Below, piece by piece: positions 9,315 to 44,144 of a stretch of 64,000 nt of DNA. A program made the position numbers and the translations under genes. The notes under the pieces were generated by a model. The model searched no databases. It was not told the DNA's origin and saw only the letters and a program-made list of their open reading frames with translations. The stretch lies in assembly GCA_021776335.1 (NCBI GenBank), contig JAJFGB010000001.1:301431-365430 (forward strand), read 5' to 3'. Position 1 is the stretch's first letter, and the number at the start of each line of letters is the position of its first letter. The stretch comes from Hyphococcus sp. (GTDB taxonomy: Bacteria > Pseudomonadota > Alphaproteobacteria > Caulobacterales > Parvularculaceae).

Positions 9315-9348
9315 AGTCGTTAGAAGAGACAGAGAGCAGTCTGAAGAC

Positions 9349-10569: not shown

Positions 10570-10570
10570 G

Positions 10571-11866
10571 ATGTCCGCTTTCGAGTCCATTCATCAATCG
10601 GATCGCGCCGTAAAACGCATGACGAGGCGGCGTGGACAGGAACTGCGGTTTCGCCTGTTCGGTCTCGGTGCCGTCATTGCGGCAATGGTCGTCCTAGCGT
10701 GGCTGACCATAAGTCTTGTTGGCACAGGCTACACGGCGTTTTACCAGCACCACATGACGCTGGAGGTTTTTCTGGACGAAGCTGTCCTTGATCCGACCGG
10801 CGAGCGCAACGCGGAAAATTTACGGAAAGCCAACTTTCGCAAGATTATTCAAGAGGCGATCTATGCGCGCTTTCCTGAGGTCAGTGAGCGCCGTCAAAAA
10901 AGTGCATTGTTCAAGATTGTCTCTGCGTCTGGCGCGACCAATCAGGTGCGCCAAATGGCTTACGCCAATCCCGCGCTCGTTGGGCGGACATTGACGCTTT
11001 CTGTCCCGACATCTGATGACGTTGATCAGCTTCTGAAGGGGTATATCGATCGGGATGCTCCAGAAAAGCGCCGGAAAATATCCAATCAGCAGATTGTCTG
11101 GGTGGATGCGCTAAAGGCGACCGGTGAAATTAAATCGCAATTCAATTGGACCTTTTTTACCGGCGTTGACAGCCGGGACCCCGAACTTGCCGGCATCGCC
11201 GGCGCGGTGGTTGGCTCATTGATGGCGCTTGCCGTCGCCTTTGTTGTTTCAGTCCCGGCTGGTGTCGGCGCTGCTGTCTATCTTGAGGAGTTCGCGCCGC
11301 AAAACCGGTTTACGGATTTTATCGAAATCAACATCAACAACCTCGCCGCCGTGCCGTCGATTGTTTTCGGCCTTCTGGGGCTTGCAGTGTTCCTGAACTT
11401 TTTCGGGATGCCCCGCTCTGCGCCGCTGGTCGGCGGGCTGGTGCTGGCGCTGATGACCCTGCCGACAGTGATCATTGCGACGCGCGCTGCACTGCGCTCG
11501 GTCTCGCCATCAATCATCGACGGCGCCCTTAGTCTTGGGGCCTCCCATACGCAGGCCGTCTTTCATCACAAGGTTCCGCTGGCGGCGCCGGGCATATTGA
11601 CCGGCTCAATCATCGGCATGGCGCAGGCTCTCGGTGAAACGGCGCCGCTGTTGATGATCGGCATGGTGGCGTTTGTTACGGAAATTCCGTCAGGCCTTAC
11701 CGAACCCGCGTCGGCTCTGCCGGTGCAAATTTTTCTATGGTCAGACAGCGCAGAGCGCGCCTGGGCGGAGCGCACATCGGCAGCGATTATCGTTTTGTTG
11801 ATGGTGCTCGTGACGATGAATGCACTGGCAATATTTCTTCGAACGCGATTGGAGCGCAGATGGTGA
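10571..11866 (+). CDS. pstA: Phosphate ABC transporter permease
   Basis: [28 protein letters not shown] motifs. Confidence 0.96.
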
Positions 11867-12726
11867 TGGCGGAAACAAATGTAGTTCGGGCGGACGGAAT
11901 TTTTCAACCGGTTCTGCCGAAAGGGGATGTAGTTGATATGGCAAAGAAACGGCGGGAGCCGGACGCTGAAAAGGCGAAATTTGCGTGCCGCGATGTCAGG
12001 GTTTTTTATGGCGCCAGTGAAGCGCTCCACGGCATTGATATGGAGATCGCCAATAGCGGCGTTACGGCGCTGATCGGTCCGTCGGGTTGCGGCAAATCAA
12101 CATTCCTGCGTGTCTTTAACCGAATGAATGACACCATTCCCAATGCGCGAGTGACCGGCGACATATTGATGGATGGAGAAGACATCTACGGCAAGAAAGT
12201 TGACCCCGTTTTGTTACGCGCACGCGTCGGCATGGTCTTTCAAAAGCCAAATCCATTTCCAAAATCAATCTATGACAATGTGGCCTATGGGCCGCGCATT
12301 CACGGTCTCGCGGTTAGTAACAGCGAGCTCGACTATATTGTTGAGAAAAGCCTGAAGCGGGCAGGGCTGTGGGACGAGGTCAAAGACCGCCTGAAAGAAT
12401 CGGGAACGGGCCTTTCCGGCGGTCAGCAACAGCGCCTGGTGATAGCGCGCGCCATTGCCGTCAGTCCTGAAGTGATTTTGATGGACGAACCGGCATCTGC
12501 CCTTGACCCCATTGCAACGGCAAAGCTGGAAGAGTTGATTGACGAGCTAAAAGAGAAATACTGCATTCTCATCGTCACGCATTCTATGGCGCAGGCGGCG
12601 CGCGTTTCCCAGAGGACGGCGTTTTTTCACCTTGGCGATCTTGTTGAATATGATGACACGCAATCGATCTTCACCAACCCGAAAGACCAACGCACACAGG
12701 ATTACATTACCGGCCGCACCGGTTGA
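11866..12726 (+). CDS. pstB: Phosphate ABC transporter ATP-binding protein
   Basis: Walker [38 protein letters not shown]; TGATG overlap with pstA. Confidence 0.97.
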
Positions 12727-12746
12727 GGTAAGATACGGAGGAAATC

Positions 12747-13451
12747 ATGAAAGAACATATTGTTACATCCTATAATGATGTCATGTCGGATCTATCCGGC
12801 GAGCTGTCTCGTATGGGTGGCCTGGTGCGCAAACAACTGATCGGGGCGCTGAAGGCGCTGGAGACCCGCGACGCCGATCTCGCAAGGCGCATTCGGAAAA
12901 ATGACAAACAGGTAGACGCCATCAATGATGATATTGAAGAGCGCGTCATGAACATATTGGCGCTGCGTCAGCCGGTTGCGGTTGATTTGCGTGAAACCAT
13001 TGCTGCGTTGAAAATAGCGCGGGAGCTGGAGCGCATCGGCGACCTGGCAAGGAATACCGCAAAACGAACAAAGGTTATCCTTGATGATGAGCCGATCGAC
13101 GGCATGGAAGAAATCCTCAAAATGGGCCGCGTCGCCGTTAAGATCGTTGAAGATGTTGTCGCTGCCTATGAGCAGCGCGACGTTGAAAAAGCGATTGCGG
13201 TTTGGAACGCTGACGAAGAGATCGATGAATATTGCAACACGGTCTTTACGCAGTTGCTGTCGGGCATGATGGTGGACAACTCGAATATCAACGCTTGCAG
13301 TCAGATGACCTTTGTTTCAAAGAATCTTGAGCGTGTCGGCGATCATGCGACAAATATTGCTGAGTCGATCCATTATGTGCTGACCGGTGAAAAAATCGAC
13401 GAGCGACGGCCTAAAAGCGATAAGACCAGCTCCACAATCGTTCAGATTTAG
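12747..13451 (+). CDS. phoU: Phosphate signalling complex protein PhoU
   Basis: LALRQPVAVDLR, ELERIGDLA, LERVGDHATNIAE motifs. Confidence 0.97.
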   Translation: MKEHIVTSYNDVMSDLSGELSRMGGLVRKQLIGALKALETRDADLARRIRKNDKQVDAINDDIEERVMNILALRQPVAVDLRETIAALKIARELERIGDLARNTAKRTKVILDDEPIDGMEEILKMGRVAVKIVEDVVAAYEQRDVEKAIAVWNADEEIDEYCNTVFTQLLSGMMVDNSNINACSQMTFVSKNLERVGDHATNIAESIHYVLTGEKIDERRPKSDKTSSTIVQI

Positions 13452-13520
13452 CGCGCCGGACAGCGTCGCTATTCAGGCGGTTTTCGGCCCGCAGCCGAGA
13501 AATGGCGGCCTTGAACCGGA

Positions 13521-13538
13521 CCTTCATCGTTCTGTCAT
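13521..13538 (+). promoter_or_regulatory. Pho box upstream of porin copy 2
   Basis: CCTTCAT-CGTT-CTGTCAT (11-bp period). Confidence 0.7.
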
Positions 13539-13595
13539 CAAACGGCGTCATTGAGCGTATCTTGTTCGGCAACGGCTGGGTGGGGCCGGTTTCAA

Positions 13596-14831
13596 ATGAT
13601 CAAGATGATGACGAGACTGGGGATGGTAGCAGGGGCGACCGCAACGGTGTTGGGCGCCGGTGCTGCCGGTGCAGAATCAACCGGGCCGGATTTCCGGTGG
13701 AATCCTGCGCCGGTTTTCACGGGCGATGACTGGGAAGCCAAAATCATTGGCCGGGTTCAGTTCGACTATGCATTAGTTGATGCAGACATATCGGGCGCCA
13801 ATTGGAATGAGGGCGAGTTACGCGGATTGCGGCTTGGGGTCTCCGGCAATTATGGTGATAATGTCAAATACAAACTCGAGCTCAATACGAATTCGAGCGG
13901 CGATGTTAGTTTTCTAGGCGATGTTCGATGGGCGCCGACAGGCGGCGCCTGGTATTTCAAAGCCGGCCAGTCCAAGACGCCAAATTCTCTCGATGAACAA
14001 ACGTCATCGCGCTTCATTTCAACGCTTGAACGCGCGGCCTTTACAGACGCCTTTGAATTTAATCGCCGTCTCGGCGTCAGCCTGAATGCCAAAGGCGAAC
14101 AATACACGCTTTCTGCAGGCGCCTATGGAGACAGCATCAACGCGCTCAGCCAAGAGGATGGTTTTGCTGTGGCGGCGCGCGCCACGGTCAATCCGATTGA
14201 AAATGACGATGGGTTAATTCATCTCGGCGTCTCGATGCGCTATCGCGGCATTGGCGACGGGCAAAGCGACTTACGTTATCGTCAACGCCCGTTCTCGCAC
14301 ATTCCGGGACGTATCATCAGCACCGGCGCTATTGCTAATGCCGATTTCTTTGTCGGTGCAGAGGCGGCGGCGATCTACAAAAGCTTCTGGGCGGCTGGCG
14401 AATATGGCGTCACGTTTGCAGAATGCAGCGCGGCGGCTGCTTGTGCCGATCCAACCTTACAAGGCGCCTATGGCGAAGCGGGCATTTTCCTCGGCGGCAG
14501 AAAAACCTACAGAGATGGAAAGTATGATCGCCCGATTGTTGATAACCCAATCACCGAAGGCGGCATGGGCGCGCTCGCTTTCGTTGCCCGGTTCGATACC
14601 ATCGACCTTTCCGACAGCGGCGTGAATGGCGGCAGCTACACTTCTTATATTCTGGGCGCCGACTGGTGGGCGACAAAATACACGCGGCTTGGCGTCAATC
14701 TCTTCAAGGTTGATGCCGATCTGGGCTCATCAACCTCAGGTCTCGATACCAATTTTGCAGCGCTCGTTTCTGGCGGCACGCTCATGGAAGACGTCACCGG
14801 CGTCATTGCGCGCGCGCAGCTCGATTTTTAG
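13596..14831 (+). CDS. OprO/OprP-family phosphate-selective porin (copy 2)
   Basis: Clear paralogue of 6918-8147 at protein and DNA level; ends QLDF. Confidence 0.9.
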   Translation: MIKMMTRLGMVAGATATVLGAGAAGAESTGPDFRWNPAPVFTGDDWEAKIIGRVQFDYALVDADISGANWNEGELRGLRLGVSGNYGDNVKYKLELNTNSSGDVSFLGDVRWAPTGGAWYFKAGQSKTPNSLDEQTSSRFISTLERAAFTDAFEFNRRLGVSLNAKGEQYTLSAGAYGDSINALSQEDGFAVAARATVNPIENDDGLIHLGVSMRYRGIGDGQSDLRYRQRPFSHIPGRIISTGAIANADFFVGAEAAAIYKSFWAAGEYGVTFAECSAAAACADPTLQGAYGEAGIFLGGRKTYRDGKYDRPIVDNPITEGGMGALAFVARFDTIDLSDSGVNGGSYTSYILGADWWATKYTRLGVNLFKVDADLGSSTSGLDTNFAALVSGGTLMEDVTGVIARAQLDF

Positions 14832-31127: not shown

Positions 31128-31697
31128 TCAGGCGGAAATGGTTTCCGCGTGCGCTTTTATCAACATTAGATCCATTCGGCGCGCTCTTTTCATCAGCAAT
31201 TCGTGATATGACCGCGCAAATTTCCCCAAACCATTTTTATAGACAGTGGTCTCCGCGAGGCTAACGCGGCAACCGTCGTTTTCGGGAATTATCCGATAAT
31301 GACCAGTCGACTCCTCCACACCGCCAAATGGTTGATCGCTCTCGATGATCGATCTGACAGCGATCTCACTGTCCGGTGAGTAAGTTTCGACAAAGAGAAT
31401 AAATAGAACCCCGGGCACTCTATGGTTATGAATTTCATAGCGCCTTTCCTGCGGCGCTCCCTGACTGACCGTGGAGCCGCGCGAGAATTCATGAAAGTCC
31501 GGCGAAGCGGGATCAAGCACGCGAAATATTTCGGGCTGCGATGCGCGTATGAATATATCGCTATCGTAATCGGTTGCCGGCGCGTCACTGCCATGCGCGG
31601 CCGTCTTCGGCGAATAGAATGGCGCCCCGAGCGCTGCGATGATCGGCGCCGTCCATTCAACTAATGAAATGCGTGCACTGGATAAAATCATACCCAA
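31128..31697 (-). CDS. Hypothetical protein, SRPBCC-like fold
   Basis: IFIRASQPEIFRVL start of domain and C-terminal amphipathic helix; weak. Confidence 0.5.
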   Translation of the reverse strand: MGMILSSARISLVEWTAPIIAALGAPFYSPKTAAHGSDAPATDYDSDIFIRASQPEIFRVLDPASPDFHEFSRGSTVSQGAPQERRYEIHNHRVPGVLFILFVETYSPDSEIAVRSIIESDQPFGGVEESTGHYRIIPENDGCRVSLAETTVYKNGLGKFARSYHELLMKRARRMDLMLIKAHAETISA

Positions 31698-31882: not shown

Positions 31883-32039
31883 ACGCATTATGCAATGGGC
31901 GCCATTGCAATCTGCAACTAAATCCGAGTTGCTTAATAAAGTTTTTACACCATATGCGCTAACTGTTGACGCTAACATATTGAATTATAACAAATTTTCA
32001 ATTTGCAACGCAGGCGGCGTTTAATGGCGCGCAAAATGA
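31883..32039 (+). promoter_or_regulatory. Sigma54-type promoter P1: LuxO-type enhancer pair, IHF-like site, -24/-12
   Basis: ACGCA-TTA-TGCAA 31883-31895; TTGCA-ATC-TGCAA 31905-31917; IHF-like ATTCAATATGTTA (minus strand, 31973-31985); TGGCGCG-CAAA-ATGA 32025-32039. Confidence 0.65.
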
Positions 32040-32071
32040 AACGGTCCTTAGCCAGTGGGTTGAGGAACGTT

Positions 32072-34909
32072 ATGCAACAGACGGTCAAAAGCGACGGCGA
32101 TCAGCAAAGGTCCTCAAGCGCCCAGATGTTGCGCGCAGGCCTGGGCGAGGCGCAGGAAGATCTTGGTCATCTTGCCCGTGTTGCGGCACAAGCACTGTCG
32201 GCGCCAAGCACATTCATAGCGTTGCTCGAAGACGATATTTTGCATTATGGCGCGCAGCACGGTGACGACGATCAAGACAACGATCGTGACAAGAAAATCT
32301 GCCAACGTATCCTTGGCGAGAATGATTTGTTTATCGTTTCAGACGCAACAACAAATACAGAGTTCTCATCCATTCTGGGACTTTCGAAACCGAACACCCG
32401 GTTCATTGCCGGCGCACCCATCGTCGGTGAAGACGGCTGCCGCGTTGGCGCAGTATGCGTTCTCGACACTGTGGTAAGGCCTGATCTAACCCCACAAAAG
32501 CTCAACGTTCTGTATTCCGTCGCCAAGCTTGCAGGGGAAGCGATGAGCAAGCGAAGCCTTAAGCAAAAAGGTGAGACAGCTTTTGCAATTCTGCAAAAAG
32601 CGCAAAAGCTAAGTCGAATTGCCCATTTCGTTTTTGACCCTGTTGGGTTCAAAACCATCAGTATTTCAAAGTCGCTTGGCATTTTTTATGATGGCGACGG
32701 TGAAACCGAGCGCGGCCTTGATTTTGGTGAATTTGTTGATCGCTTGCATCCAGACGATTCTGATCTTGTGCAGCACGCAATCGGAGAGGGCGTTAAGGGC
32801 GGGGCCGCAATCAATATCAAATTTCGTGTTGAATCGCACAAGGGCGCCTATCGAAATATCTGGTTGAATGCTGAGCCGCTTCAACTCGACAATTCGGCAG
32901 CTGCGCCATGGATCGGCATCATGCAGGACGTCACCGATCAGGTTCGAAAAGAACAAGACCTTAAGGAAAATATTGCATTTCGGCGCGCGGCGACCGACAC
33001 GGCGTTGGATTGCGTTATCACAATTGATGCAAGTGGAAAAATCAAGGCGTTCAACCCGGCCGCGGAGCAAATCTTTGGGTATGCAAGGCAAGATGTTGTC
33101 GGCGCTCCCCTGGCAGAAATAATAATCCCTGAAGAACTGCGCGGCGCCCATCTCGCCGGTATCAAGCGGTACCTTGAAACCGGAGAGCATAATGTGCTCG
33201 GCAAGCGCATTGAAGTTGAGGCTATTACAAAGTCCGGCGCCCGTTTGCCAATTGAATTGGCGATCACACCATTCGAGGTGAATGGCGAGAAACATTTTAC
33301 AGCATATCTGAGGGACATATCTGAACGTAAAGCTGCAGCAGTTGAGATCGAGGAATCGGCTGCTTGCCTCAAAACGGCGAAGGAAGAAGCTGAAGCAGCC
33401 AACGCCGCGAAGTCTGATTTCCTCGCGACGATCAGCCACGAAATACGCACGCCGTTAAACGGCATCATAGGCGGCCTCAGTCTCATTAAGGACGAGCTTG
33501 ATCGAACCGATCACCGAAGTCATGCCGAAGTTGCATATAACTCGGCGGAGACGTTACTGGTGTTGATCAATGACATACTAGATTTGTCAAAAATTGAAGC
33601 CGGAAAGCTGGAAATTGAAAACACGAATTTTGATCTTTATGAATGCATCAGAAGTGCGGCTGATCTTTTTAAAGCGAATGCGGATGAAAAAGGGCTTGAG
33701 TTTGCTGTTGAGATTCCGAACGATCTAACCCGATGGCGCGTTGGCGATTCGGGACGGATTCGCCAGGTACTTTTGAATTTTATCTCCAACGCTATCAAGT
33801 TTACCGATGCTGGAGGTGTTGTTCTGTCCGTATCAGAAATCAACAATGAACAAGTCGTGTTGAGCGTTGCCGATACAGGGATCGGCATCCAATCAAAATA
33901 TCAAGACAAGTTATTTACCAGCTTCCAACAGGTCGATGCATCATACAAGCGCCGGTTTTCCGGCAGCGGCCTTGGCCTCGCAATTTCCAGGCAACTTGCG
34001 GAGTTGATGGGCGGTGACATTCGTTTTTCAAGCGTAGAAAGCAAAGGGAGTACCTTTTCCATGACCCTTCCCCTTAAAATAGGCGCCGCTCAGGAAACAC
34101 CATACGCGCAGGAAATAGAGCCCGACCGGTTGAGGGGCAATATTCTCATCGCCGAAGACAGCGCAACCAACGCGCTGGTGGCGCGGGCGCTCCTTCGCTT
34201 GAAAGGCGCAAAAGTCGATCACGTTTCCAACGGCGCTGAAGCTGTGGCGGCCTGCCGCGTGCGGCCTTACGATTTGATTCTCATGGATCTGGCAATGCCG
34301 GAGATGGATGGCTTTGAAGCCACGCGGGAAATTCGCAGCTCCAACACCGCGAACAAGGAGACGCCAATTGTGGCGCTTACGGCCAATGTTTCGGAGGACG
34401 ATCGCAAGGAATGCATGAATGTCGGGATGAATGATCTCGTCGCGAAACCAATTAATCGACGGCAGTTTCTGAATACGGTCGCCGACTGGCTTGGGAATGA
34501 CGAAATCTGTGGGTCAGAAGAGGAGGCGGATTTCGATTCAATTACTGTCTTCGATCCAAACCGATTTGAGACTGAATGGCGTGACCTTCCGCTTTCGGCG
34601 CAGTTTGAAATCATCACGGTCTTTATGGACGAAACGAAAGCCCGACAGATGAAGATTGCGCGCGCGATGCTTAAACAGGACTGGCGCATAGCTGAAAATG
34701 AGGCGCACGCGCTCAAGAGTTCGGCCGGCAATATTGGCGCTGAACGCCTGCATCTGCTGGCCAAACGGATTGAAGCGCATTTGAAAGCAAGTGAACGAGA
34801 CGCTGCCGCGGCGCTCATTCTGCGCGTACCTGGCGTCTGTTCGGATACGATTGACAGTATCGAAAAGCAGCACGCCAGAATTGGCGAGAAGGCAAAGTCA
34901 AATGGGTAA
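32072..34909 (+). CDS. Cytoplasmic hybrid histidine kinase GAF-PAS-PAS-HisKA-HATPase-REC-Hpt
   Basis: GAF (RFIAGAPIV..GAVCVLD), PAS (RLHPDD), FixL-like PAS (FNPAAEQIFGY..AHLAGIKRYLETGE), FLATISHEIRTPLNG, DLILMDLAMPEMDG, Hpt AHALKSSAGNIGA; no TM; GAGGAA RBS before ATG 32072. Confidence 0.93.
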   Translation: MQQTVKSDGDQQRSSSAQMLRAGLGEAQEDLGHLARVAAQALSAPSTFIALLEDDILHYGAQHGDDDQDNDRDKKICQRILGENDLFIVSDATTNTEFSSILGLSKPNTRFIAGAPIVGEDGCRVGAVCVLDTVVRPDLTPQKLNVLYSVAKLAGEAMSKRSLKQKGETAFAILQKAQKLSRIAHFVFDPVGFKTISISKSLGIFYDGDGETERGLDFGEFVDRLHPDDSDLVQHAIGEGVKGGAAINIKFRVESHKGAYRNIWLNAEPLQLDNSAAAPWIGIMQDVTDQVRKEQDLKENIAFRRAATDTALDCVITIDASGKIKAFNPAAEQIFGYARQDVVGAPLAEIIIPEELRGAHLAGIKRYLETGEHNVLGKRIEVEAITKSGARLPIELAITPFEVNGEKHFTAYLRDISERKAAAVEIEESAACLKTAKEEAEAANAAKSDFLATISHEIRTPLNGIIGGLSLIKDELDRTDHRSHAEVAYNSAETLLVLINDILDLSKIEAGKLEIENTNFDLYECIRSAADLFKANADEKGLEFAVEIPNDLTRWRVGDSGRIRQVLLNFISNAIKFTDAGGVVLSVSEINNEQVVLSVADTGIGIQSKYQDKLFTSFQQVDASYKRRFSGSGLGLAISRQLAELMGGDIRFSSVESKGSTFSMTLPLKIGAAQETPYAQEIEPDRLRGNILIAEDSATNALVARALLRLKGAKVDHVSNGAEAVAACRVRPYDLILMDLAMPEMDGFEATREIRSSNTANKETPIVALTANVSEDDRKECMNVGMNDLVAKPINRRQFLNTVADWLGNDEICGSEEEADFDSITVFDPNRFETEWRDLPLSAQFEIITVFMDETKARQMKIARAMLKQDWRIAENEAHALKSSAGNIGAERLHLLAKRIEAHLKASERDAAAALILRVPGVCSDTIDSIEKQHARIGEKAKSNG

Positions 34910-36317
34910 ACCGAAGGCAAAAGTCCTCGTTGTTGAAGACAGCCCGTCACTCGCTCGTACATATACGGCCCAGCTTGAACACAGCGGATATGAAACAAGC
35001 ATCGCTGATACGGGCGCCAAGGCGCGCGCGATTGTCCAGGAGTTTGACTGTGTTCTGCTCGACCTTGGGCTTCCTGACGAAGACGGACTTGACATTTTAA
35101 CGGATTGGAACGCGGCGGAGCGGCCCGTGATCGTGATTACCGGGAATGGATCGATCAACACTGCCGTTGATGCAATGCAGTGCGGCGCCGTCGACTTTCT
35201 CGTCAAGCCTTTCCAGAGTGAACGGCTGATCACAACCGTTGCCAACGCAATTGAGAAAAGTCGCTTAAGCCAAATAGTGAATACATATGAAAGCAAGATC
35301 GACCGAAAATCATTTGGCGGTTTCGTCGGCGACACACTTGAAATGCAGGCGGTTTATCAAACATTGGAAAGCGCTGCGAGCAGCAAAGCGACCGCTTTCA
35401 TCATTGGTGAGAGCGGCGTTGGTAAGGAACTTGCGGCGCGCGCGGTACATGATTACAGCCCCCGTGCGGGTAAGCCATTTGTGGCGCTCAATTGCGGCGC
35501 GATTCCGCGAGATCTGCTTGAGAGCGAGTTATTCGGACATATCAAGGGCGCATTTACAGGCGCTACGTCGGATCGGGAGGGGGCGGCGGCGCGCGCGAAT
35601 GGCGGCACATTGTTTCTGGATGAAATCACCGAGATGGATATCTCGCTGCAACCAAAGCTTCTGCGTTTTCTGCAGCTTGGCAGTTTTCAAAAAGTCGGTG
35701 GCGACAAAACGATCGAAACTGACATTCGAATTGTGGCGGCGACAAATAGAACGCCCCTTGAATGTGTGCGTTTGGGTTTATTGCGAGAGGATCTCTATTA
35801 TCGGTTGAATGTGTTGCCGATTGAGTTGCCGCCTCTCCGGGACCACGCTGGAGATATCGCAAAGATCGCGTCTGAATTCCTGGTCGAATATGCCAATGAA
35901 GAGGGGAAGAATTTCTCGGAGTTCACAAACACGGCAATCGAAGCGCTTCAACAACATGACTGGCCAGGCAATGTTCGGGAACTACAAAATGTCATCAGAC
36001 AAATCGTTGTCCTGAATGATGGCCCTGTCGTGCAGCCGTCCATGGTGATATCGTTGTTAATGGACAAGGTATCGACGGCAGGACGCCTGTTACCAGCAGC
36101 AACGGATATTGAGCCCATAAGCAGCGCATCGGCTGGGTTTTCAAATCGCGAGTTTGAACTGAAACCACTTTGGCAGATCGAGCTTGACGCGATTGACGAC
36201 GCGATAGCGCGTTGTGACGGAAATATTCAAAAAGCCTCCCGATTGTTGGACATCAGTCCATCGACAATCTACCGCAAACGCGAGCGCGCCAGAGGGCGAT
36301 CTTCTGACGTTGCGTGA
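34902..36317 (+). CDS. LuxO-like sigma54-dependent response regulator (REC-AAA+-Fis HTH)
   Basis: LLDLGLPD receiver, ESAASSKA, GESGVGKE, ESELFGHIKGAFTGA, WPGNVRELQN, PLWQIE..AI..CDGNI..LDISPSTIYRK; overlaps the kinase stop codon. Confidence 0.93.
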   Translation: MGKPKAKVLVVEDSPSLARTYTAQLEHSGYETSIADTGAKARAIVQEFDCVLLDLGLPDEDGLDILTDWNAAERPVIVITGNGSINTAVDAMQCGAVDFLVKPFQSERLITTVANAIEKSRLSQIVNTYESKIDRKSFGGFVGDTLEMQAVYQTLESAASSKATAFIIGESGVGKELAARAVHDYSPRAGKPFVALNCGAIPRDLLESELFGHIKGAFTGATSDREGAAARANGGTLFLDEITEMDISLQPKLLRFLQLGSFQKVGGDKTIETDIRIVAATNRTPLECVRLGLLREDLYYRLNVLPIELPPLRDHAGDIAKIASEFLVEYANEEGKNFSEFTNTAIEALQQHDWPGNVRELQNVIRQIVVLNDGPVVQPSMVISLLMDKVSTAGRLLPAATDIEPISSASAGFSNREFELKPLWQIELDAIDDAIARCDGNIQKASRLLDISPSTIYRKRERARGRSSDVA

Positions 36318-36350
36318 CATAAGCTAACACTCTCTGACAACACTCGAATC

Positions 36351-36383
36351 GCGCGCCTCCTGGTGAGGCTGCGCGCTTTTTTT
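36351..36383 (+). terminator. Rho-independent terminator after the activator gene
   Basis: GCGCGCCTC-CTGGT-GAGGC(T)GCGC stem followed by T7. Confidence 0.75.
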
Positions 36384-36412
36384 GGCAGTGCTAACGACAT
36401 TTGCACCGTGTA

Positions 36413-36545
36413 CTGCAAATTGCATCGGTTGCGTTGCATATTGCTTCGCCTGCCATGGCTGCAACGGCTGTTATGCAATCGCTGCAACCATAACCGATTG
36501 ATCTAATTGTATATATTTCCGTTCGCGTAATGGCTCGGTCTTTGA
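36413..36545 (+). promoter_or_regulatory. Sigma54-type promoter P2 upstream of sqdB
   Basis: CTGCA-AAT-TGCAT 36413-36425; TTGCA-TAT-TGCTT 36434-36446; IHF-like GATCAATCGGTTA (minus strand, 36491-36503); TGGCTCG-GTCT-TTGA 36531-36545. Confidence 0.7.
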
Positions 36546-36611
36546 GTGTCTTTGCGCATTGGAAGCGCCGCCATCGGATGCTGCGCACAGTTTGGAACAG
36601 GAGTATCATTC

Positions 36612-37823
36612 GTGGAAAAGAAAATTGTTATCCTCGGCGGAGATGGATTTTGCGGCTGGCCTACAGCGCTCCATCTTTCAGCTAAAGACTATAACGTCAC
36701 CATTGTTGACAATCTTTCGAGGCGCTTGATTGACGTTGAGCTCGGCGCTTCAAGCTTGACGCCGATCAAGTCGACCGAACGGCGGCTCGAGGCCTGGACG
36801 CGCATTACCGGCCGGCAGATTAACTTCGAGAAAATCGACGCTGCAAAAGACTATGAAGCGCTGAAGTCGCTGCTCAATCGTGTACGTCCCGATACAGTCA
36901 TTCATTTCGCAGAGCAGCGCGCAGCGCCCTATTCGATGAAAAGCGCCACCCACAAGACCTACACTGTAGATAATAATATCGGTGCGACACACAACTTGCT
37001 GTCAATTCTCTCTGAACTCGAACTGGATACTCATGTCGTTCATCTGGGGACCATGGGTGTTTATGGTTATGATGATGCTGGTCTCGAGATTCCGGAAGGG
37101 TATTTACCAGTTCAGATAAAAACTGAAACCGGCGAATTTATTTCCCGAGAAGTGCTTTACCCGACAGATCCCGGCAGCGTCTATCATATGACGAAGTCCA
37201 TGGATCAGCTTCTTTTTCAGTTTTACGCCAAGAATGACGGCATTCGCGTCACAGATCTTCACCAGGGCATCGTTTGGGGGACGCAGACCGAAGAAACACG
37301 GCTGTCGGAATCACTGATTAATCGATTTGACTATGACGGCGATTACGGCACGGTCCTGAACCGTTTTTTGATGCAAGCTGCAGTCGGTCATCCGCTTACC
37401 GTACACGGCACCGGAGGCCAAACACGTGCCTTCATCCATATACAAGACACCGTTCGGTGTATTGCGCTTGCGGTGGAAAACCCGCCGGCGCGCGGCGCGC
37501 GCGTAAAAATTCTCAATCAAATAACCGAATGCCATCGCGTTCGCGATCTGGCGAGCATTGTTTCGAAGGTGACAGGTGCGAAGGTCGCGTTTGTCGATAA
37601 TCCACGTAAAGAAGCCGATGAGAATGATCTGCGCGTTTCAAATGCCACCTTCATCGACCTCGGACTGAAACCAACCACCCTTGAAAATGGATTGCTTGCG
37701 GAAACCATGGATATCGCCGTGAAGTACGCGCTGCGCCACGATCCCGCAATGATCCCTTGCGTTTCCACCTGGACCTCAACGCAGCGCCCTGGCGAAGTTA
37801 AAGAACGCCAAGCGATCGCTTAA
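36612..37823 (+). CDS. sqdB: UDP-sulfoquinovose synthase
   Basis: GGDGFCGWPTALHLS, HFAEQRAAPYSMKS, LGTMGVYG, YHMTKSMD, RFDYDGDYGTVLNRF, HGTGGQTRAFIHI, all diagnostic of alphaproteobacterial SqdB; AGGAG RBS before GTG 36612. Confidence 0.95.
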   Translation: MEKKIVILGGDGFCGWPTALHLSAKDYNVTIVDNLSRRLIDVELGASSLTPIKSTERRLEAWTRITGRQINFEKIDAAKDYEALKSLLNRVRPDTVIHFAEQRAAPYSMKSATHKTYTVDNNIGATHNLLSILSELELDTHVVHLGTMGVYGYDDAGLEIPEGYLPVQIKTETGEFISREVLYPTDPGSVYHMTKSMDQLLFQFYAKNDGIRVTDLHQGIVWGTQTEETRLSESLINRFDYDGDYGTVLNRFLMQAAVGHPLTVHGTGGQTRAFIHIQDTVRCIALAVENPPARGARVKILNQITECHRVRDLASIVSKVTGAKVAFVDNPRKEADENDLRVSNATFIDLGLKPTTLENGLLAETMDIAVKYALRHDPAMIPCVSTWTSTQRPGEVKERQAIA

Positions 37824-37844
37824 GGAAAACGGAGGTTTATCACC

Positions 37845-39569
37845 ATGCGTCTCATGATCATTGGCATAACCGCACTTGGATTAGCGGCTCTTGCCATGAT
37901 CATTGCGGATGGCCGGCTGTTTAACTCGCTCGGCTTCGCCTCCCTTTGGGGGGGCGATGTCCGGCAAGTGCGGTTTGCTAATGATGCATGGGCGCCGAGG
38001 CAAAAGCGCGACACAATTGTGATCCCGGTGGCGCATGGACAATGGAAGACGATGTCGGGTTTTCCGTCCTATGCGTCCTTTGTGTTCCCGCTGACACAAC
38101 ACACGCAGATTGAGGCGGGCGCCTTTGTTCTGGAATTTTCATTGCAGCTACCCTCGTCGGGTGGCGGCGCGATGCGGGTGATGATCAACAATGAAAAACG
38201 GGCGGAGCTGCTATTTGAACGGGATCGGACGCGTTACCGAATAACTGTTGAACTGACGGATGCGGATTTAAAAAAAGGGGAGCTGTTTGTAGCGCTGTCG
38301 GCGGACGGATATGGGGCCGGTGGGGAATGTCCCGATGATCGTTCGCGGATCGCGATCATCGAAATCAAGCCGAACACCAGGGTCGAGTTGCGTCTGGCGG
38401 CGCCAATCAGTCACCCGGCAGATGCGGCAATACTGGCTGGCGATCCGATCCGTTTGTTGATGTCGGACGATAATATGCAGCTGCATCGCGAACGAACACT
38501 CGCCCTCGCGCTGAGGCTTGAACAAAAAGGCAGACGGGTTGAATTCGTGGCAAAGGACGCAGTTCGCAACCGGATTTCTATTCGCATCGACCCGAAAACC
38601 AACAAACCACGATTTGACCGTCGCATGAATGAAGTCGTCATGTCTGGACCTCGCGATGCCGCTTTGCTGCGCCCAGCCAATGTCAGCTCGAGCGCCGGCC
38701 CAAATTTCGGCAAGGACGATATTTTGTATGTTGAAGCGCTTGGTGCGGCTGTTCATACGCGCCAGTTTCGCCGCGAAATAAAATGGCGGATCGACTTTGA
38801 CCTAAAGGACATGCCTGACGGTGCGGCGCCGACACAGCTAAACCTGAAGCTTTTTCGTTCAGCCCTGGGCGAAGATCATGCAGGCCTTTTGTCGATCAGC
38901 TTTAATGGCGGTTTGCTTCATAGTGCGAGCAACATCGGGATTTCTAATCCGCTCAGTAAAAAAATCACTCTTCCGCAGAGTGAAATGCGGCTTGAAAATG
39001 CGCTTGAGATTTCAATCCTCACCAACGAAGACCGCATAGGTATTTGCAACCCAGGTCGCGACGCTTTTGCTCAATTATTAAAACCGACAGCGCTTACGCG
39101 ATTTCGGCCCCCTCAGGATATGCGTGCGGAGTCATTGCCTCATCGACTTAGACGGATCGGGCATGTGCAGATCTCAGCGCCTTTCGGGATGCAGAGCTCA
39201 GCCTATCGGGAGAGCATATCGCTTCTGGCGCGCATCACGCCGCCCACAATTAAACTGACAAGCAGCGAAAGACTGGTGCAAGGGCCGACAGTCCGAGCGA
39301 CGATTATTCCACTGCAAGAATTTCGCACTGAGATCGGCAAGTATCTACCACCGCCCGCCGCAATAAGAGCGGCAGGCGGTGATTACAGGCCTGATCAGGC
39401 GCCAATCATATGGGTTGGTGTGGATGCGAGCGCATTGGGATTTGCGGATCCGGCGCAGCAATATGCGCGATTAACGCGGGCATCTGCGAACAAGATTTTG
39501 AATTCAGATCGCAACGGCGTTGCAATCATCTTTGAGCTTCCGGCTATTGACGAGATAGGCGCGTCATGA
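37845..39569 (+). CDS. BcsB-like periplasmic polysaccharide co-polymerase subunit
   Basis: N-terminal hydrophobic anchor; two repeats resembling BcsB carbohydrate-binding modules (F.FPL..F.LEFS..MRVMINN..C.DD..IEIKPNTRVEL and IDFDL..LNLKL..LSISFNGGLL..LP..EN.LEI..C..AQLL). Confidence 0.6.
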   Translation: MRLMIIGITALGLAALAMIIADGRLFNSLGFASLWGGDVRQVRFANDAWAPRQKRDTIVIPVAHGQWKTMSGFPSYASFVFPLTQHTQIEAGAFVLEFSLQLPSSGGGAMRVMINNEKRAELLFERDRTRYRITVELTDADLKKGELFVALSADGYGAGGECPDDRSRIAIIEIKPNTRVELRLAAPISHPADAAILAGDPIRLLMSDDNMQLHRERTLALALRLEQKGRRVEFVAKDAVRNRISIRIDPKTNKPRFDRRMNEVVMSGPRDAALLRPANVSSSAGPNFGKDDILYVEALGAAVHTRQFRREIKWRIDFDLKDMPDGAAPTQLNLKLFRSALGEDHAGLLSISFNGGLLHSASNIGISNPLSKKITLPQSEMRLENALEISILTNEDRIGICNPGRDAFAQLLKPTALTRFRPPQDMRAESLPHRLRRIGHVQISAPFGMQSSAYRESISLLARITPPTIKLTSSERLVQGPTVRATIIPLQEFRTEIGKYLPPPAAIRAAGGDYRPDQAPIIWVGVDASALGFADPAQQYARLTRASANKILNSDRNGVAIIFELPAIDEIGAS

Positions 39570-42325
39570 CCGATGCCGTTGCAACGGAAACAAGGTCTCA
39601 AAATGAATTTCTTTGCGTTGACAGCGCACCGAAACAATATGCCTCTTTAATCCCGATATGGCGTGCGCCGGCGGCGTGTGCGCTATTTCTGGTTATTGGT
39701 TTCGCAGCGATATTTATCGTCAACCAGATCCCATTCCTGAATGCCGCTTTCCCTGATGATGATTTTATCTTCTCGCCATATACAGGCAGCCATTCCATAC
39801 CCATCCGGCTGTTTATTGTCACCTTCAGTGCATCGTTTTGCTGCTTCTGCAATGGCGACCTCAAAAACAAAACCCTGCTGTTTGCCGATATCGTGTTCAC
39901 CTATGCGCTCTACTGCGCGGTGTTCGACCTCATCAACATTATTGTTTATGAGACGTTGCAGGTTCGATATCAGCTAAGCTTCATTGAGATCGTTAGCGGA
40001 TTACTCGGTTTTTGGGTTTTCTCATTGAAACTCCTCCGGCGCGGGCGCATGCCGCCAAAGATTGAAGTCCCTTACAAGCCACAGCGAACATTTTCAACGA
40101 TCGTTCGGCTCGTGGGCGGCGCTGTCGCGGCCGGATTATTTTCGTTTTGGATCGCATCGCTTGATTTGGCGATTGTTCAGGACCTTCGAAATTTTGCACT
40201 GCTGGGCGGGATTGGTCCTGGCGTATTTCTCTTTTTGCCAGTGTTGTTTCTAATCTGGTTTGTTTTAGCGACCTATGACCGGCTGACCATGAAAGTGGGC
40301 GACTTTACGCCTCCGCTGACATTTGTTGTTCCTGCCCACAACGAAGAATACATCATCGCTGATACAATCTTCGCGATGGATGAGGCTGCCTGTAATTACA
40401 ACGGCAATGTGATCATTCTCATCATGAATAACAATTCCGACGACCGAACAAGTGAGGTCGCCGAGGCTGCGCTGGCAAAATGCAAGGCGGCGACAGGAAA
40501 AGTGATCGACGTCCCGAAGCCAGGAAAATCGAATGCGCTAAACGCAGGTCTTGCTGCAGCCGAAACCGAATTTTTCGTGCGCGTTGACGCCGATACATTG
40601 ATTGCGCCGGATTCAATCCACCGCGCCATGCGATATTTCTATGACCCTAAAGTCGGCGTGGTCGGCGGATTGCCTATACCGCCAGGCGGGGCGCTTTTCG
40701 ACAATGCGCGATTCCTCGAGGTGATTGTAAAACACGGTTATTACTCGGTTGCGCTCGGTGCGATCAATGGCGTTGTTGGCGTGCCGGGCATGTTAGCGCT
40801 CTATCGCACCGAGCTCCCAAGGCAGCTTGGTGGATTTGTTGAAGGCATGAACGGTGAGGACACCGACATGTCGTTGCGCATCGGCGAGATGGGATATGAG
40901 GTCGTCGTTGATCCAAAGGTGACCTACATCTCCGAAGTGCCTGCGAGTTACAAGCATATGCGTGAACAACGCATGCGCTGGTTCCGCTCAATCTATCATA
41001 TCTCAAGCAGGAATGGGGATTATCTCGACCGGTCATGGCTGACGATCAGGGGAAAGATTATTTTACCCTATATGCTCGTCAATTCAGCTCGCCGCGCCAT
41101 GCTCACCCCGCTCGTTATGTTTGGCGCCATCGAATATGTGACCAGTTTTAATTCAGCGAACACACTGGAGTGGCAAGCGATCTTAGCGGTGCTCATCGGG
41201 GCGCCAGCAATTGTTGCGGTTTTTGCTTCGCTGATAAACGGCTATCCGAAAGGCATTCTGGCGCTTCCAGATTATTTGGTGTTTCGCGCGATCCGCGCTT
41301 ACCTGACGTTAGAATCGCTTCTCAGCATTATCATTGCGCCGGACCCGGAAACCGTTGCGCGCGCGCAAGTAGTGCGACGTAAAAGGAAGGTATGGATTGC
41401 TCGCGCCCGGGCGGGGTTCGCCGGCGCTGTGCTTTCTGTTGCCGCTATCTTTAACGCGAACGCGAACGATCCAGGCCTTTTAGTTGAGGCGACAATGGGC
41501 GCTCAACGGCAGGGCCTGATCGTCGAGGAAGATGACGTCAAGGCGAGCGGCCTTGCCGTTGGCGTCTTTGCTGACGCATCACTGATTTATGACCAAAGGC
41601 TCAGAAAAAAGGACTTCGTGAAGGTTAAAAGTAACCTGAGGAAGGATATTTATCCGGATCGCTCTGGGTTAGACACGATACACTATCGTGGTGAGCTGCA
41701 ATATCGGCGACAATTGAGTAAAAAATGCAGTTGCTGGTTACAAGCGACAATGCGCTACGACCAAAAAAAACGCGATGGTGAGTTTCTCTTTCGACGGGAG
41801 GCGGCGCAAGTTAAGCTGTGGCGCCGGCACAACAAACAACATAACGGGTTCATACAGCTGGGTGCGAGCAACCTTGACTACAACGACGCACGCCTCGCAG
41901 GGTTTGATCAGCGAAGATACAGAATAGATGTTGGCCATCAATGGCGGCCGGCAGACTCACGGCTTCGATTGAATGGGGTGATCTTTGCGGAACACTCCGA
42001 TGCTGACGCGGCTCGGTTTGATTTTCAATCTCTTGGCGCACAGTTACGCGCAGAGAGGCAATTTGCTAGCTCAGCGACGAAAATGCATGTTGCGCTGTTT
42101 TGGCGTGAACGTCGCTATGAAGGTGTATTCAGTCGAGATTTTCCAATGTCGCGGAGCGATAGGGCGCTAAGAGCGTCGGTCGGCCTTTCACATCCAGTCA
42201 GGAAAAGACTTACCGTGACGGGGGCATTGGGCTGGGAACAAAATCGCTCCAATATTCCCATTCGGCGGCATCAGGGCTTAACGTTTCGGATCACGCTTAG
42301 CGCCAAATTGCCGATCCTGGATTGA
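39566..42325 (+). CDS. Processive GT2 polysaccharide synthase fused to an outer-membrane beta-barrel
   Basis: About six N-terminal TMs; VPAHNEE, KSNALNAG, DADT, GEDTD and QRMRW (D,D,D,QxxRW); further TMs; internal signal-peptide-like segment; C-terminal region of about 290 aa with amphipathic beta-strand pattern. ATGA overlap with the upstream gene. Confidence 0.85.
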   Translation: MTDAVATETRSQNEFLCVDSAPKQYASLIPIWRAPAACALFLVIGFAAIFIVNQIPFLNAAFPDDDFIFSPYTGSHSIPIRLFIVTFSASFCCFCNGDLKNKTLLFADIVFTYALYCAVFDLINIIVYETLQVRYQLSFIEIVSGLLGFWVFSLKLLRRGRMPPKIEVPYKPQRTFSTIVRLVGGAVAAGLFSFWIASLDLAIVQDLRNFALLGGIGPGVFLFLPVLFLIWFVLATYDRLTMKVGDFTPPLTFVVPAHNEEYIIADTIFAMDEAACNYNGNVIILIMNNNSDDRTSEVAEAALAKCKAATGKVIDVPKPGKSNALNAGLAAAETEFFVRVDADTLIAPDSIHRAMRYFYDPKVGVVGGLPIPPGGALFDNARFLEVIVKHGYYSVALGAINGVVGVPGMLALYRTELPRQLGGFVEGMNGEDTDMSLRIGEMGYEVVVDPKVTYISEVPASYKHMREQRMRWFRSIYHISSRNGDYLDRSWLTIRGKIILPYMLVNSARRAMLTPLVMFGAIEYVTSFNSANTLEWQAILAVLIGAPAIVAVFASLINGYPKGILALPDYLVFRAIRAYLTLESLLSIIIAPDPETVARAQVVRRKRKVWIARARAGFAGAVLSVAAIFNANANDPGLLVEATMGAQRQGLIVEEDDVKASGLAVGVFADASLIYDQRLRKKDFVKVKSNLRKDIYPDRSGLDTIHYRGELQYRRQLSKKCSCWLQATMRYDQKKRDGEFLFRREAAQVKLWRRHNKQHNGFIQLGASNLDYNDARLAGFDQRRYRIDVGHQWRPADSRLRLNGVIFAEHSDADAARFDFQSLGAQLRAERQFASSATKMHVALFWRERRYEGVFSRDFPMSRSDRALRASVGLSHPVRKRLTVTGALGWEQNRSNIPIRRHQGLTFRITLSAKLPILD

Positions 42326-42336
42326 TTAACGCAATG

Positions 42337-42486
42337 CCTCAAATTGCGCGCATTCTCTCACATTGCTCTTGCATATTGCGGCAGTTAGCCGGCCATCAAA
42401 ACTCGTGAACCGAACACTGCGCCAATATATTGTTTTTGCTTACTCTTTTGCGACCGCGGGGCTGCGCAGGATGGCCTGGCTTTTGA
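42337..42486 (+). promoter_or_regulatory. Sigma54-type promoter P3 upstream of GT2-cysH
   Basis: CCTCA-AAT-TGCGC 42337-42349; TTGCA-TAT-TGCGG 42369-42381 (11-mer TTGCATATTGC identical to P2); IHF-like AAACAATATATTG (minus strand, 42423-42435); TGGCCTG-GCTT-TTGA 42472-42486. Confidence 0.65.
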
Positions 42487-42514
42487 AGCTCTTGAGGGGA
42501 GAGAAAGGTCGAAC

Positions 42515-43447
42515 ATGCCAGATAAAATGCAAAAACGAAAAGGCGGCCGTTTTGGTTTCCGCAATATACGACCGCGGGCGCGATCATGCTCAGCATACGA
42601 CGTCAGTGTGATCATTCCTTATCATAACGCATCGCGGACAATCCGCCGCGCGGTCGCCTCCATTGTTTTTCAACGTCACGTCAGATGCGAGATTGTTATT
42701 ATCAATGACGGCTCGTCTCTTGAAGAGACCGCGAAGCTGTCGTCGCTTCGTGGAAAGCGGAATATTCGCGTTGTTGATGTGCTTCATCGCGGCGCTGCCG
42801 CTGCACGCAATTTGGGCGCAGAGCTCACCCGGTCCGCCGTCATCGCTTTCCTTGATGCGGATGATGAGATTCCCGCACGCGCGTTTACCAGAAAGATCAA
42901 GAAATTAAACAGCAATCCGGATATCGGCCTCGTTTTTGGACGAACGCGCATTTGCGTTAATACACAAAAACCGACTGATGAAATTACGCCATTTCAGTCT
43001 TCGCTTACACTTGAGGAAGTGCTCGGTTCATTTCCCGTGCTGACAGCGTCAAATATGCTTGTTCGCCGAGCGGCGTTTGAGGATATCGGAGGCTTCGACG
43101 AAGGATTACGTGACGCCAGCGATCAAGAGTGGACTGCTCGGCTTTGCTCGCATGAAAAATGGGACGCTGCCGGCGTTAAAAGCGTGACGGTCCGGAAATT
43201 TGTCGGCCGTTCGTCGCTCTGGGCGAATCCTGATGCGATGGAACAGGCGTGGCGCCAGGTTCTCGCTTCACATATGGCAAAGGGAAACCAACTGGAGGAC
43301 GGGGAAGCGGCGCGAATTTCGGACCTGTTTTATCAGCGCCTCGCCAGTTACGCCGGGCGCTATGTCAATGTCCATAACAAATCGCGCTTCTTTGAACTGA
43401 TCCAAATCTGGAGGGGGCAGCGTGATGCAATTGCATACAGCTCATAG
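42515..43447 (+). CDS. Soluble GT2 glycosyltransferase
   Basis: VSVIIPYHNA, IVIINDGSS, GAAAARNLG, IAFLDADD, GGFDEGL..SD. Confidence 0.9.
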   Translation: MPDKMQKRKGGRFGFRNIRPRARSCSAYDVSVIIPYHNASRTIRRAVASIVFQRHVRCEIVIINDGSSLEETAKLSSLRGKRNIRVVDVLHRGAAAARNLGAELTRSAVIAFLDADDEIPARAFTRKIKKLNSNPDIGLVFGRTRICVNTQKPTDEITPFQSSLTLEEVLGSFPVLTASNMLVRRAAFEDIGGFDEGLRDASDQEWTARLCSHEKWDAAGVKSVTVRKFVGRSSLWANPDAMEQAWRQVLASHMAKGNQLEDGEAARISDLFYQRLASYAGRYVNVHNKSRFFELIQIWRGQRDAIAYSS

Positions 43448-44144
43448 TCCGTCGGGTTTTCATGCGGCGCAACCGATTGTTGATTTGCTGAATGTTGAGC
43501 ACGAAAATGTGCGCGCAGAATGCATTCTCCGAAATGCCCTTGATCTTTTCAGCGGCGAAATCGTTCTGGTGTCATCTTTCGGGGCCGATGCGGCTGTGCT
43601 CCTTCATATGCTCGCAGAATTTGACAAGGATATACCAGTCATTTTCCTGGATACCGGACGTCACTTTGAAAAAACACTTCACTACCGCCAGACCCTGGCG
43701 CACCAGCTCGGCCTTCGCAATGTTCGATCGTCTCTCCCGAATCGACTTGCACTGGCCGAGCTGGACCCGGACGGCAGCCTGCATCAGCTGGACCCAGACG
43801 CGTGTTGCGCCATTCGAAAAAAGGCCGTCTTGAAAAGCGCATTATCGCCATTCAGCGCATGGATATCGGGCCGAAAACGTTACCAGACGGCGGCCCGGCA
43901 AAATATCCGCATATTCGAGTGCGACAATGAAATGCGTATCAAACTAAGCCCTCTTGCTGATTGGTCAGAGCAAGATATTGAGCACTACTATGAAGCGCAC
44001 AAATTGCCGCGACATCCGCTATGGGCGGAAGGCTATCGGTCGATCGGATGCGCGCCATGCACGTCGCCAACCATTCAGGGAGAAGATGCACGCGATGGCC
44101 GCTGGAGCGCCCGCGGCAAAACTGAATGCGGAATTCATTTGTGA
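43425..44144 (+). CDS. cysH: APS/PAPS reductase, Fe-S (APS-reductase) type
   Basis: SSFGADAAVLLHM, FLDTGRHF, CCAIRK, SIGCAPCT, RDGRW, KTECGIH; overlaps the GT2 stop. Confidence 0.93.
   Translation: MQLHTAHSPSGFHAAQPIVDLLNVEHENVRAECILRNALDLFSGEIVLVSSFGADAAVLLHMLAEFDKDIPVIFLDTGRHFEKTLHYRQTLAHQLGLRNVRSSLPNRLALAELDPDGSLHQLDPDACCAIRKKAVLKSALSPFSAWISGRKRYQTAARQNIRIFECDNEMRIKLSPLADWSEQDIEHYYEAHKLPRHPLWAEGYRSIGCAPCTSPTIQGEDARDGRWSARGKTECGIHL

Follow-up and report, generated by a model that had tools for sequence, protein, structure and literature searches.

A seven-gene cluster of Hyphococcus sp. that may encode the synthase-dependent secretion of a sulfoquinovose-containing glycan

Why would a bacterium place a gene for the synthesis of uridine diphosphate sulfoquinovose (UDP-SQ) amid the genes of a cellulose-synthase-like machine? 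The question arises from a stretch of 64,000 nt (the window) of a Hyphococcus sp. metagenome-assembled genome (MAG) from a biofilm metagenome, in which seven genes follow each other on the + strand between 32.0 and 44.1 kb. According to Pfam and NCBIfam assignments they encode, in this order, a hybrid kinase, a sigma-54 activator, the UDP-SQ synthase homologue SqdB, a BcsB-like protein (ORF4), a family 2 glycosyltransferase (GT2) fused to a predicted outer-membrane barrel (GT2::barrel), a soluble GT2 and the reductase CysH. Judging from gene neighbourhood, homology and predicted folds, we regard it as probable that the cluster was acquired horizontally and is a self-contained unit for the synthase-dependent production and export of a glycan with sulfoquinovose (SQ). 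A carbon-sulfonated bacterial polymer from a cellulose-synthase-like machine appears as its most likely product.

SQ is made on a gigatonne scale and its known carriers are the lipid sulfoquinovosyl diacylglycerol (SQDG) and archaeal N-glycans (PMC13436972, PMC4388408). In archaea, Agl3 is a UDP-SQ synthase, and an SQ-containing N-glycan is present in Sulfolobus (PMC4388408). Polysaccharides are nowhere mentioned in a review of SQ cycling from 2026. Searches of the full-text literature yielded neither a bacterial SQ polysaccharide nor a paper on sqdB together with a BcsB-like synthase, in agreement with a first-pass annotation of this DNA, according to which no bacterial synthase-type SQ polymer was known. 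A polymer of this kind would represent a new polysaccharide chemistry. Its carbon-bound sulfonate would be permanently charged and resistant to sulfatases. In the cycling of sulfonates the polymer would count as a new source and a new sink, and it would offer sulfoquinovosidases a new substrate.

Genes and predicted proteins of the cluster

The first-pass annotation had described a one-strand array of seven genes with overlapping stop and start codons. The array was recovered at the same coordinates from open reading frame (ORF), Pfam and NCBIfam evidence, and the ORF list holds no sizeable, independently supported ORF on the opposite strand. The overlaps exist between the kinase and activator genes, between ORF4 and the large GT2 gene and between the soluble GT2 gene and cysH, whereas sqdB and ORF4 are 21 nt apart. 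Several gene starts had to be corrected while the gene identities stood. The kinase likely starts at the ATG at position 32072, preceded by GAGGA (an alternative ATG is at 32024), the activator likely at the ATG at 34902 and SqdB likely at the GTG at 36612, preceded by AGGAG.

The sqdB gene (36612..37823) encodes 403 aa, the same length as in its orthologues. The alignment of the protein with Arabidopsis SQD1 (1qrr) covers the full length, with E 1e-97 over 385 residues. The protein retains the short-chain dehydrogenase/reductase triad T145/Y182/K186 as well as H183 and R101, and its motifs GTMG, YHMTK and EQRAAPYSM align to these residues. Its identity to the SqdB proteins of the sqdB-sqdD (sqdBDC-type) loci of S. 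meliloti and Marinovum and of a Microbulbifer sqdB-GT4 locus is 64-66% (66% for S. meliloti). This conservation suggests that the cluster SqdB makes UDP-SQ from UDP-glucose and sulfite. The genome was also checked for a separate sqdB, as the first-pass annotation had proposed. Such a gene is present on the - strand at the end of a rmlB-rmlD-rmlA row (G000 C3:510487-511659; L004:8485-9660). It shares 63% identity with the cluster copy and is the orthologue of the one housekeeping-type sqdB that is the only copy in 38 of 41 congeners. A gene for a GT8-type SqdD (PF01501) was not detected in a search of the genome. In a maximum-likelihood tree, the synthase-linked SqdB proteins of both orders form one clade (support 97/94), to which neither the sqdBDC type nor the housekeeping plus sqdB-GT4 type belongs. 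In Tateyamaria, where sqdB, a BcsB-like gene and a GT2 gene form a simpler locus (a trio), the sqdB of the trio is the sole one in the genome.

The last gene of the cluster, cysH (43422..44144), encodes an Fe-S-type adenosine 5′-phosphosulfate (APS) reductase. With its PAPS_reduct fold it scores 253.7 bits, above the NCBIfam cut-off of 154 (NF002537), and C128, C129, C210 and C213 (CC...CxxC) as well as the motif ECGIH are invariant in the alignment with the orthologues of other clusters. A second, housekeeping cysH belongs to the operon cysG-GST-cysI-DUF934-cysH, while among the cluster genes no sulfite reductase is linked to cysH. Both sqdB and cysH of the cluster are dedicated extra copies.

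The large GT2 of 919 aa consists of three parts. The first, aa 1-601 (39566..41368), carries the motifs VDADT, GEDTD and QRMRW (aa 468-472) of a processive membrane GT2. A structural model based on 33 sequences, with a mean predicted local distance difference test (pLDDT) of 81, shows six N-terminal transmembrane helices, a GT-A domain at aa 250-480 and C-terminal transmembrane helices. In comparisons with PDB folds, this model matches PcManGT, hyaluronan synthases, BcsA and chitin synthases. The best NCBIfam model is that of the poly-N-acetylglucosamine (PNAG) synthase, at a weak score, and the hits to Glyco_transf_21 are weak as well. Pfam yielded no PilZ hit in this protein, the C-terminus of which is a predicted beta-barrel instead.

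The second part is a signal-peptide-like linker, aa 602-633 (41369..41464), in which a basic stretch (RRKRK...RAR) is followed by the hydrophobic stretch AGFAGAVLSVAAIF and by NANA. It is kept in the fused orthologues. For the third part, the barrel domain at aa 634-919 (41465..42325), 14 beta strands are predicted with high confidence between aa 638 and 917, at block pLDDT values mostly of 80-96. An exhaustive HMMER search returned 51 relatives of the barrel, mostly free-standing proteins of about 305-325 aa, the Pfam hits of which are solely weak and all to outer-membrane barrel families. The profile of this family gave nothing significant against PDB sequences. The processive GT2 and the outer-membrane barrel had both been named by the first-pass annotation, and the predicted folds agree with both.

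The origin of the fusion can be approached from another locus, L016, in which a separate barrel gene with an ordinary signal peptide overlaps the stop codon of the gene for a 639-aa GT2. The latter is preceded by a BcsB-like gene and by sqdB, the readable part of which is 70% identical to the cluster sqdB. Since the barrel is a separate, overlapping gene there, the fusion can be seen as the joined form of a coupled gene pair, and its linker corresponds to the signal peptide at the N-terminus of the free L016 barrel. Unfused Rhodobacterales synthases stop just before the linker position. From this and from the positive charges before the hydrophobic stretch, a periplasmic position of the barrel follows. 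Signal peptidase may free the barrel by a cut at A-N-A, or it may remain tethered. Internal translation initiation of the barrel was rejected, as the linker lacks an in-frame start with a Shine-Dalgarno sequence. An inner-membrane synthase that is fused through an apparent internal signal peptide to its own outer-membrane barrel is unusual. A second GT2::barrel fusion of 916 aa and 41% identity is encoded at L017:812-5318. It has a longer linker with its own signal-like segment. That contig begins about 800 bp upstream of the BcsB-like gene and does not cover the sqdB region.

ORF4 (37845..39569; 574 aa) is without Pfam hit, though faint hits to PF03170 occur in some of its homologues. Only 12 relatives were found among 5.8 billion proteins. 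An AlphaFold2 model built with 12 homologues (pLDDT 70.7) shows an N-terminal transmembrane helix followed by two pairs of a jelly-roll and a flavodoxin-like (alpha/beta) domain. The 22 best PDB matches of this model are all BcsB, with E-values of 4e-16 to 1e-12, and no other fold was matched at an E-value below 1e-12. Hence, the predicted fold supports the earlier designation of ORF4 as BcsB-like. The BcsB-like protein of the Rhodobacterales/Stappiaceae trios is homologous to ORF4 (27% identity, E 3e-29).

The soluble GT2 (42515..43447; 310 aa) is a GT-A enzyme according to Pfam and NCBIfam and appears to be accessory.

Conservation across genomes

The cluster recurs in four other metagenomic lineages with different flanks (L005/L006, L007, L008/L009 and L011). 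All seven genes are present in L005/L006 and in L007, while the contigs of L008/L009 end within the synthase gene. In L011, a Caulobacterales MAG, the kinase, activator, sqdB, BcsB-like, GT2::barrel and cysH genes are found without the small GT2 gene. CysH is therefore the steadier of the two, and the soluble GT2 appears dispensable. The cluster was absent from all 60 relatives searched, 36 congeners and 24 further genomes of the same order.

Simpler relatives exist in Tateyamaria, in Ruegeria and in a Stappiaceae MAG (L013 for Tateyamaria, L014 and L015). These loci consist of genes for a GerE-type regulator, a small Oxidored_molyb-like protein, a hybrid kinase, SqdB, the BcsB-like protein and the GT2. 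The Oxidored_molyb-like protein of 161-164 aa is encoded directly 5′ of the kinase gene in these three trios (L013:3758-4243, L014:3924-4418, L015:3919-4413). The vicinity of a sulfite-oxidase-family fold to a sulfo-sugar pathway is suggestive. Barrel homologues were looked for in the Rhodobacterales trios and that candidate was rejected, because the genes downstream encode Sel1/peptidoglycan-binding or RTX proteins. Genes for proteins with RTX calcium-binding repeats (798 and 528 aa) directly follow the cluster of L011 (12053-14449) and the trio of L013 (11873-13459). Possible roles are those of secreted partners or of modifiers of an anionic polymer, for which the RTX modules of alginate epimerases offer a parallel.

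At E <=1e-3, the synthase part has 398 relatives, including the query. Among the matches listed, synthases of approximately 611 aa bear Rhodobacterales or Stappiaceae names where the source is named. The pair of BcsB-like and GT2 genes was found in 9 of 201 genomes of the family to which the Rhodobacterales trios belong. An even sample of 400 Alphaproteobacteria added one weak BcsB-like hit (E 1.8e-22) with sqdB upstream of it, so the family is patchy rather than class-wide. These ten further BcsB-like loci were inspected. The sqdB gene is located directly upstream in eight of them, and a GT2 gene follows in all nine with a readable downstream flank. In the ninth locus, sqdB (64% identity) is convergent and situated just past the GT2 gene, whereas the tenth was seen only within a 1.5-kb flank. 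The convergent variant (L040:8491-14425, G562) comprises genes for a 390-aa beta-rich protein, the BcsB-like protein and a 618-aa GT2 and then the convergent sqdB; the order differs and the linkage is kept.

The first-pass annotation had staked its reading on the conservation of sqdB next to these genes in other genomes. This conservation was observed, in the four lineages and in the Rhodobacterales/Stappiaceae trios, so that the check did not refute the reading. The system is thus not confined to the Hyphococcus locus, which represents the most elaborate variant of a wider family. Since cultured strains with the trio exist (Tateyamaria sp. SN6-1 and Ruegeria sp. AU67), the nature of the product is directly testable.

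Regulators, promoters and flanking genes

The first gene (32072..34909) encodes a cytoplasmic hybrid histidine kinase with the Pfam domain order GAF-PAS-PAS-HisKA-HATPase-REC-Hpt. The 13 best PDB hits of the PAS domain adjacent to HisKA (32951-33358; kinase aa ~310-445) are all haem domains of FixL or DosP (E 5e-18 to 1e-12), and a histidine of this PAS domain aligns with the proximal histidine of FixL. The domain is therefore predicted to bind haem. As it belongs to the FixL type of haem-PAS domains, the input of the kinase is probably a gas, with O2 as the probable candidate. Over 498 aa, this part of the kinase shares 41% identity with the one encoded next to the trio of Tateyamaria. The Rhodobacterales trios pair the same kinase type with a GerE-type regulator and not with a sigma-54 activator.

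The activator (34902..36317) is a LuxO/NtrC-like response regulator with REC, Sigma54_activat (AAA+) and HTH_8 domains, an architecture identical to that of LuxO. Its best NCBIfam model is Vibrio LuxO (NF041946), at 523 bits and below the 800-bit cut-off; the NtrC model scored 367 bits. The genome possesses rpoN.

Promoters dependent on sigma-54 have GG at -24 and GC at -12, with a spacing of 10 nt. Three sigma-54-like boxes of the form TGGC-N7-(T/A)TGA are located 30-65 nt upstream of the kinase, sqdB and small-GT2 starts, namely TGGCGCGCAAAATGA at 32025-32039, TGGCTCGGTCTTTGA at 36531-36545 and TGGCCTGGCTTTTGA at 42472-42486. The box at 32025 is conserved in L008, the one at 36531 in L005, L007 and L008, and the one at 42472, before the GT2-cysH unit, in L005 and L007. 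With these boxes, the shared promoter motif reported by the first-pass annotation was borne out.

The control region of the kinase-activator unit (31883..32071) combines its box with the GAGGA sequence before the ATG at 32072 and with a cluster of TGCAA/TTGCA half-sites, including the perfect element TTGCAATCTGCAA at 31905-31917. The sqdB promoter region (36401..36545), which is kept in L005, L007 and L008, likewise joins a half-site cluster, with the palindrome TGCAAATTGCA at 36414-36424, to its box. Before the kinase gene and before sqdB the half-sites reach a density of about 24 per kb, compared with 2.6 per kb in the whole window. These clusters are the top-ranked 300-bp stretches of the window, and the same clustering occurs in L005, L007 and L008. 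The LuxO box TTGCA-N3-TGCAA with at most 2 mismatches is not enriched window-wide (39 found, 50 expected), and only the local clustering of half-sites is significant.

The activator gene is followed by a terminator-like GC hairpin and U7 (36351..36383), with a folding energy of about -17 to -18 kcal/mol and a z-score that is not significant. Together with the boxes before the kinase, sqdB and small-GT2 genes, this arrangement suggests three transcription units. The sequencing runs that hold the sequence were DNA runs only, from the biofilm metagenome; no RNA runs were found.

The flanks are unrelated to the cluster. Upstream there are two peptidase genes, of which one shares the strand of the cluster and the other does not, and further upstream a pst/porin region; downstream, genes for a patatin and a short-chain dehydrogenase/reductase lie on the opposite strand. 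A divergent ORF at 31128-31697 was considered as a part of the system and rejected, because it shows no conservation with the counterpart ORF in L005. The pst-type ATP-binding cassette transporter region, between two genes for phosphate-selective porins O/P at 6888-14831 of the window, is likewise unrelated.

Proposed pathway, rival readings and comparison with known systems

In the pathway that we propose, the extra CysH would reduce APS to sulfite, which the extra SqdB would add to UDP-glucose to yield UDP-SQ. The 919-aa GT2 would then build a chain from UDP-SQ, alone or in alternation with a common UDP-sugar, and thread it through its own membrane channel, in the way of cellulose and hyaluronan synthases. 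In the periplasm the BcsB-like protein would take the chain over, and the 14-stranded barrel would convey it across the outer membrane. The soluble GT2 may add a primer or a side sugar. Expression would be driven from the three sigma-54-type promoters by the LuxO-like activator, once phosphorylated by the FixL-type kinase via the REC-Hpt relay of the latter. Such a FixL-like to LuxO-like sigma-54 relay in control of a matrix polymer would be an unusual feature.

The co-regulation of the linked cysH and sqdB genes ties this pathway to sulfite chemistry, an argument that is missing in the simpler trios. In the minimal trios the synthase is the sole linked consumer of UDP-SQ, which makes SQ more likely as a backbone residue than as a decoration. 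SQ (6-deoxy-6-sulfo-glucose) has no O6. The linkages would therefore run through O2, O3 or O4, and SQ-SQ linkages cannot form a PNAG-like beta-1,6 chain. A bolder version, which we consider less likely than not, is a true sulfoquinovan of marine and biofilm alphaproteobacteria. Its backbone would consist wholly or alternately of SQ, polymerised from UDP-SQ by a BcsA-like synthase. In the lineage of the Hyphococcus locus this would be joined by a private supply of sulfite from APS, a barrel translated together with the synthase and then cleaved off, and an O2-sensing FixL-like switch. Such a polymer would form a new class of biopolymer, strongly acidic and resistant to sulfatases, and would add to the marine sulfur cycle a pool of C-sulfonated carbon that has gone unrecognised.

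Several observations weigh against the proposed pathway. The cluster SqdB reaches 330 bits and thus stays below the NCBIfam equivalog cut-off of 575 (NF041015). The TM-scores between ORF4 and BcsB are low (about 0.27). Moreover, the membrane anchor of ORF4 is its N-terminal helix, at the opposite end from the C-terminal anchor of BcsB. The donor sugar of the GT2 is not readable from sequence, and the polymer may consist of ordinary sugars. A linked outer-membrane component is missing in most trios, so export past the periplasm is not general. Finally, TGGC and the sigma-54 spacing are kept at all nine boxes examined in four diverged loci, but in each of them the -12 element reads GA in place of the near-invariant GC, which makes the dependence on sigma-54 uncertain. 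GA at this position would reflect either a lineage-specific sigma-54 variant or weak promoters that are restrained until activation.

These observations can be set against other explanations of the locus. The synthase may produce an ordinary backbone, such as a glucan, with SQ as a minor decoration or primer introduced by another transferase, here the soluble GT2, or with SQ attached to a lipid anchor. A second GT2 gene co-transcribed with cysH, the unreadable donor and the weak match to the PNAG synthase are all compatible with this view. We consider it unlikely, as the soluble GT2 is missing in L011 and in all Rhodobacterales trios examined, while sqdB still stands beside the synthase and no other enzyme linked there could use UDP-SQ. 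The lack of an outer-membrane component in most trios would also fit a product that is not secreted. It would be a sulfonated oligosaccharide or glycolipid that stays in the periplasm or the membrane, made by the GT2 and its periplasmic partner much as osmoregulated periplasmic glucans are made. A GT2 with a periplasmic beta-sandwich partner is the layout of OpgH/OpgG as well, and this likeness and the weak Glyco_transf_21 hits point in the same direction. Yet, the barrel is fused to the synthase in this lineage and translationally coupled to it in L016, the predicted fold of ORF4 matches BcsB, and the QRMRW motif and the channel fold are those of processive polymer synthases, and we judge a non-secreted product quite improbable.

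The classical role of SqdB is in SQDG synthesis, and the genome lacks a GT8-type SqdD. From this one might suppose that sqdB and cysH serve SQDG beside an unrelated synthase, or else that this SqdB clade makes another product. We regard both as very improbable. A separate sqdB exists genus-wide and the cluster is absent from the 60 relatives. In different taxonomic orders and with different gene arrangements sqdB stays linked to the synthase, and the linked SqdB proteins form their own clade. In line with the first-pass annotation, which had noted that neither sqdC/sqdD nor sqdX occurs in the window, no SQDG-type GT4 or GT8 is linked in any locus. The SQDG role of the cluster sqdB was rejected on linkage and phylogeny. 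Against a different product stands the agreement of the catalytic and substrate residues with those of SQD1. The secreted, SQ-containing glycan accordingly remains our preferred reading.

Among the known systems, the proposed machine resembles Bcs cellulose synthase in its membrane-bound processive GT2 with D, DxD, ED and QxxRW motifs and a channel, in a periplasmic partner with predicted jelly-roll and flavodoxin-like pairs, in a predicted outer-membrane barrel and in the translational coupling of the partner and synthase genes. Unlike Bcs, the cluster has no PilZ/cyclic di-GMP module, and its partner is anchored N-terminally instead of C-terminally. Its predicted barrel is small, 14-stranded, fused and devoid of TPR, whereas BcsC combines TPR with a 16-stranded porin. 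From the linked genes for a UDP-SQ synthase and an APS reductase, a sulfonated donor is to be expected in place of UDP-glucose. With class I hyaluronan synthases, which are among the best fold matches, and with Alg8/Alg44/AlgE it would have in common a synthase-type GT2 for both the polymerisation and the translocation of an anionic polymer. However, a C-sulfonate and not a carboxylate would provide the charge, homology to Alg44, AlgK or AlgE is lacking, and the partner is BcsB-like.

The SQDG pathway, with SqdB/SQD1 and either SqdD-SqdC (Rhodobacter, Sinorhizobium) or SqdX/SQD2, has the same first enzyme with a conserved active site. It differs from the cluster, in which no GT8 or GT4 lipid glycosyltransferase is linked, SqdB belongs to a distinct clade and the lipid role is presumably left to the other sqdB. 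The regulators are similar to Vibrio LuxQ-LuxU-LuxO in the succession of hybrid kinase, Hpt and sigma-54 activator, in LuxO as the best NCBIfam match and in the TTGCA/TGCAA half-sites. In contrast to the Vibrio system, the score is below the cut-off, Hpt and kinase form one protein, sensing would be by a cytoplasmic FixL-type haem-PAS, the targets would be biosynthetic operons and not the Qrr small RNAs, and the -12 element is GA. The archaeal Agl3/Sulfolobus N-glycan is the only established non-lipid use of UDP-SQ and, as proposed here, involves a surface glycan (PMC4388408). It is made, however, by protein glycosylation via a lipid carrier and an oligosaccharyltransferase, and not as a bacterial synthase-dependent polymer (PMC4388408).

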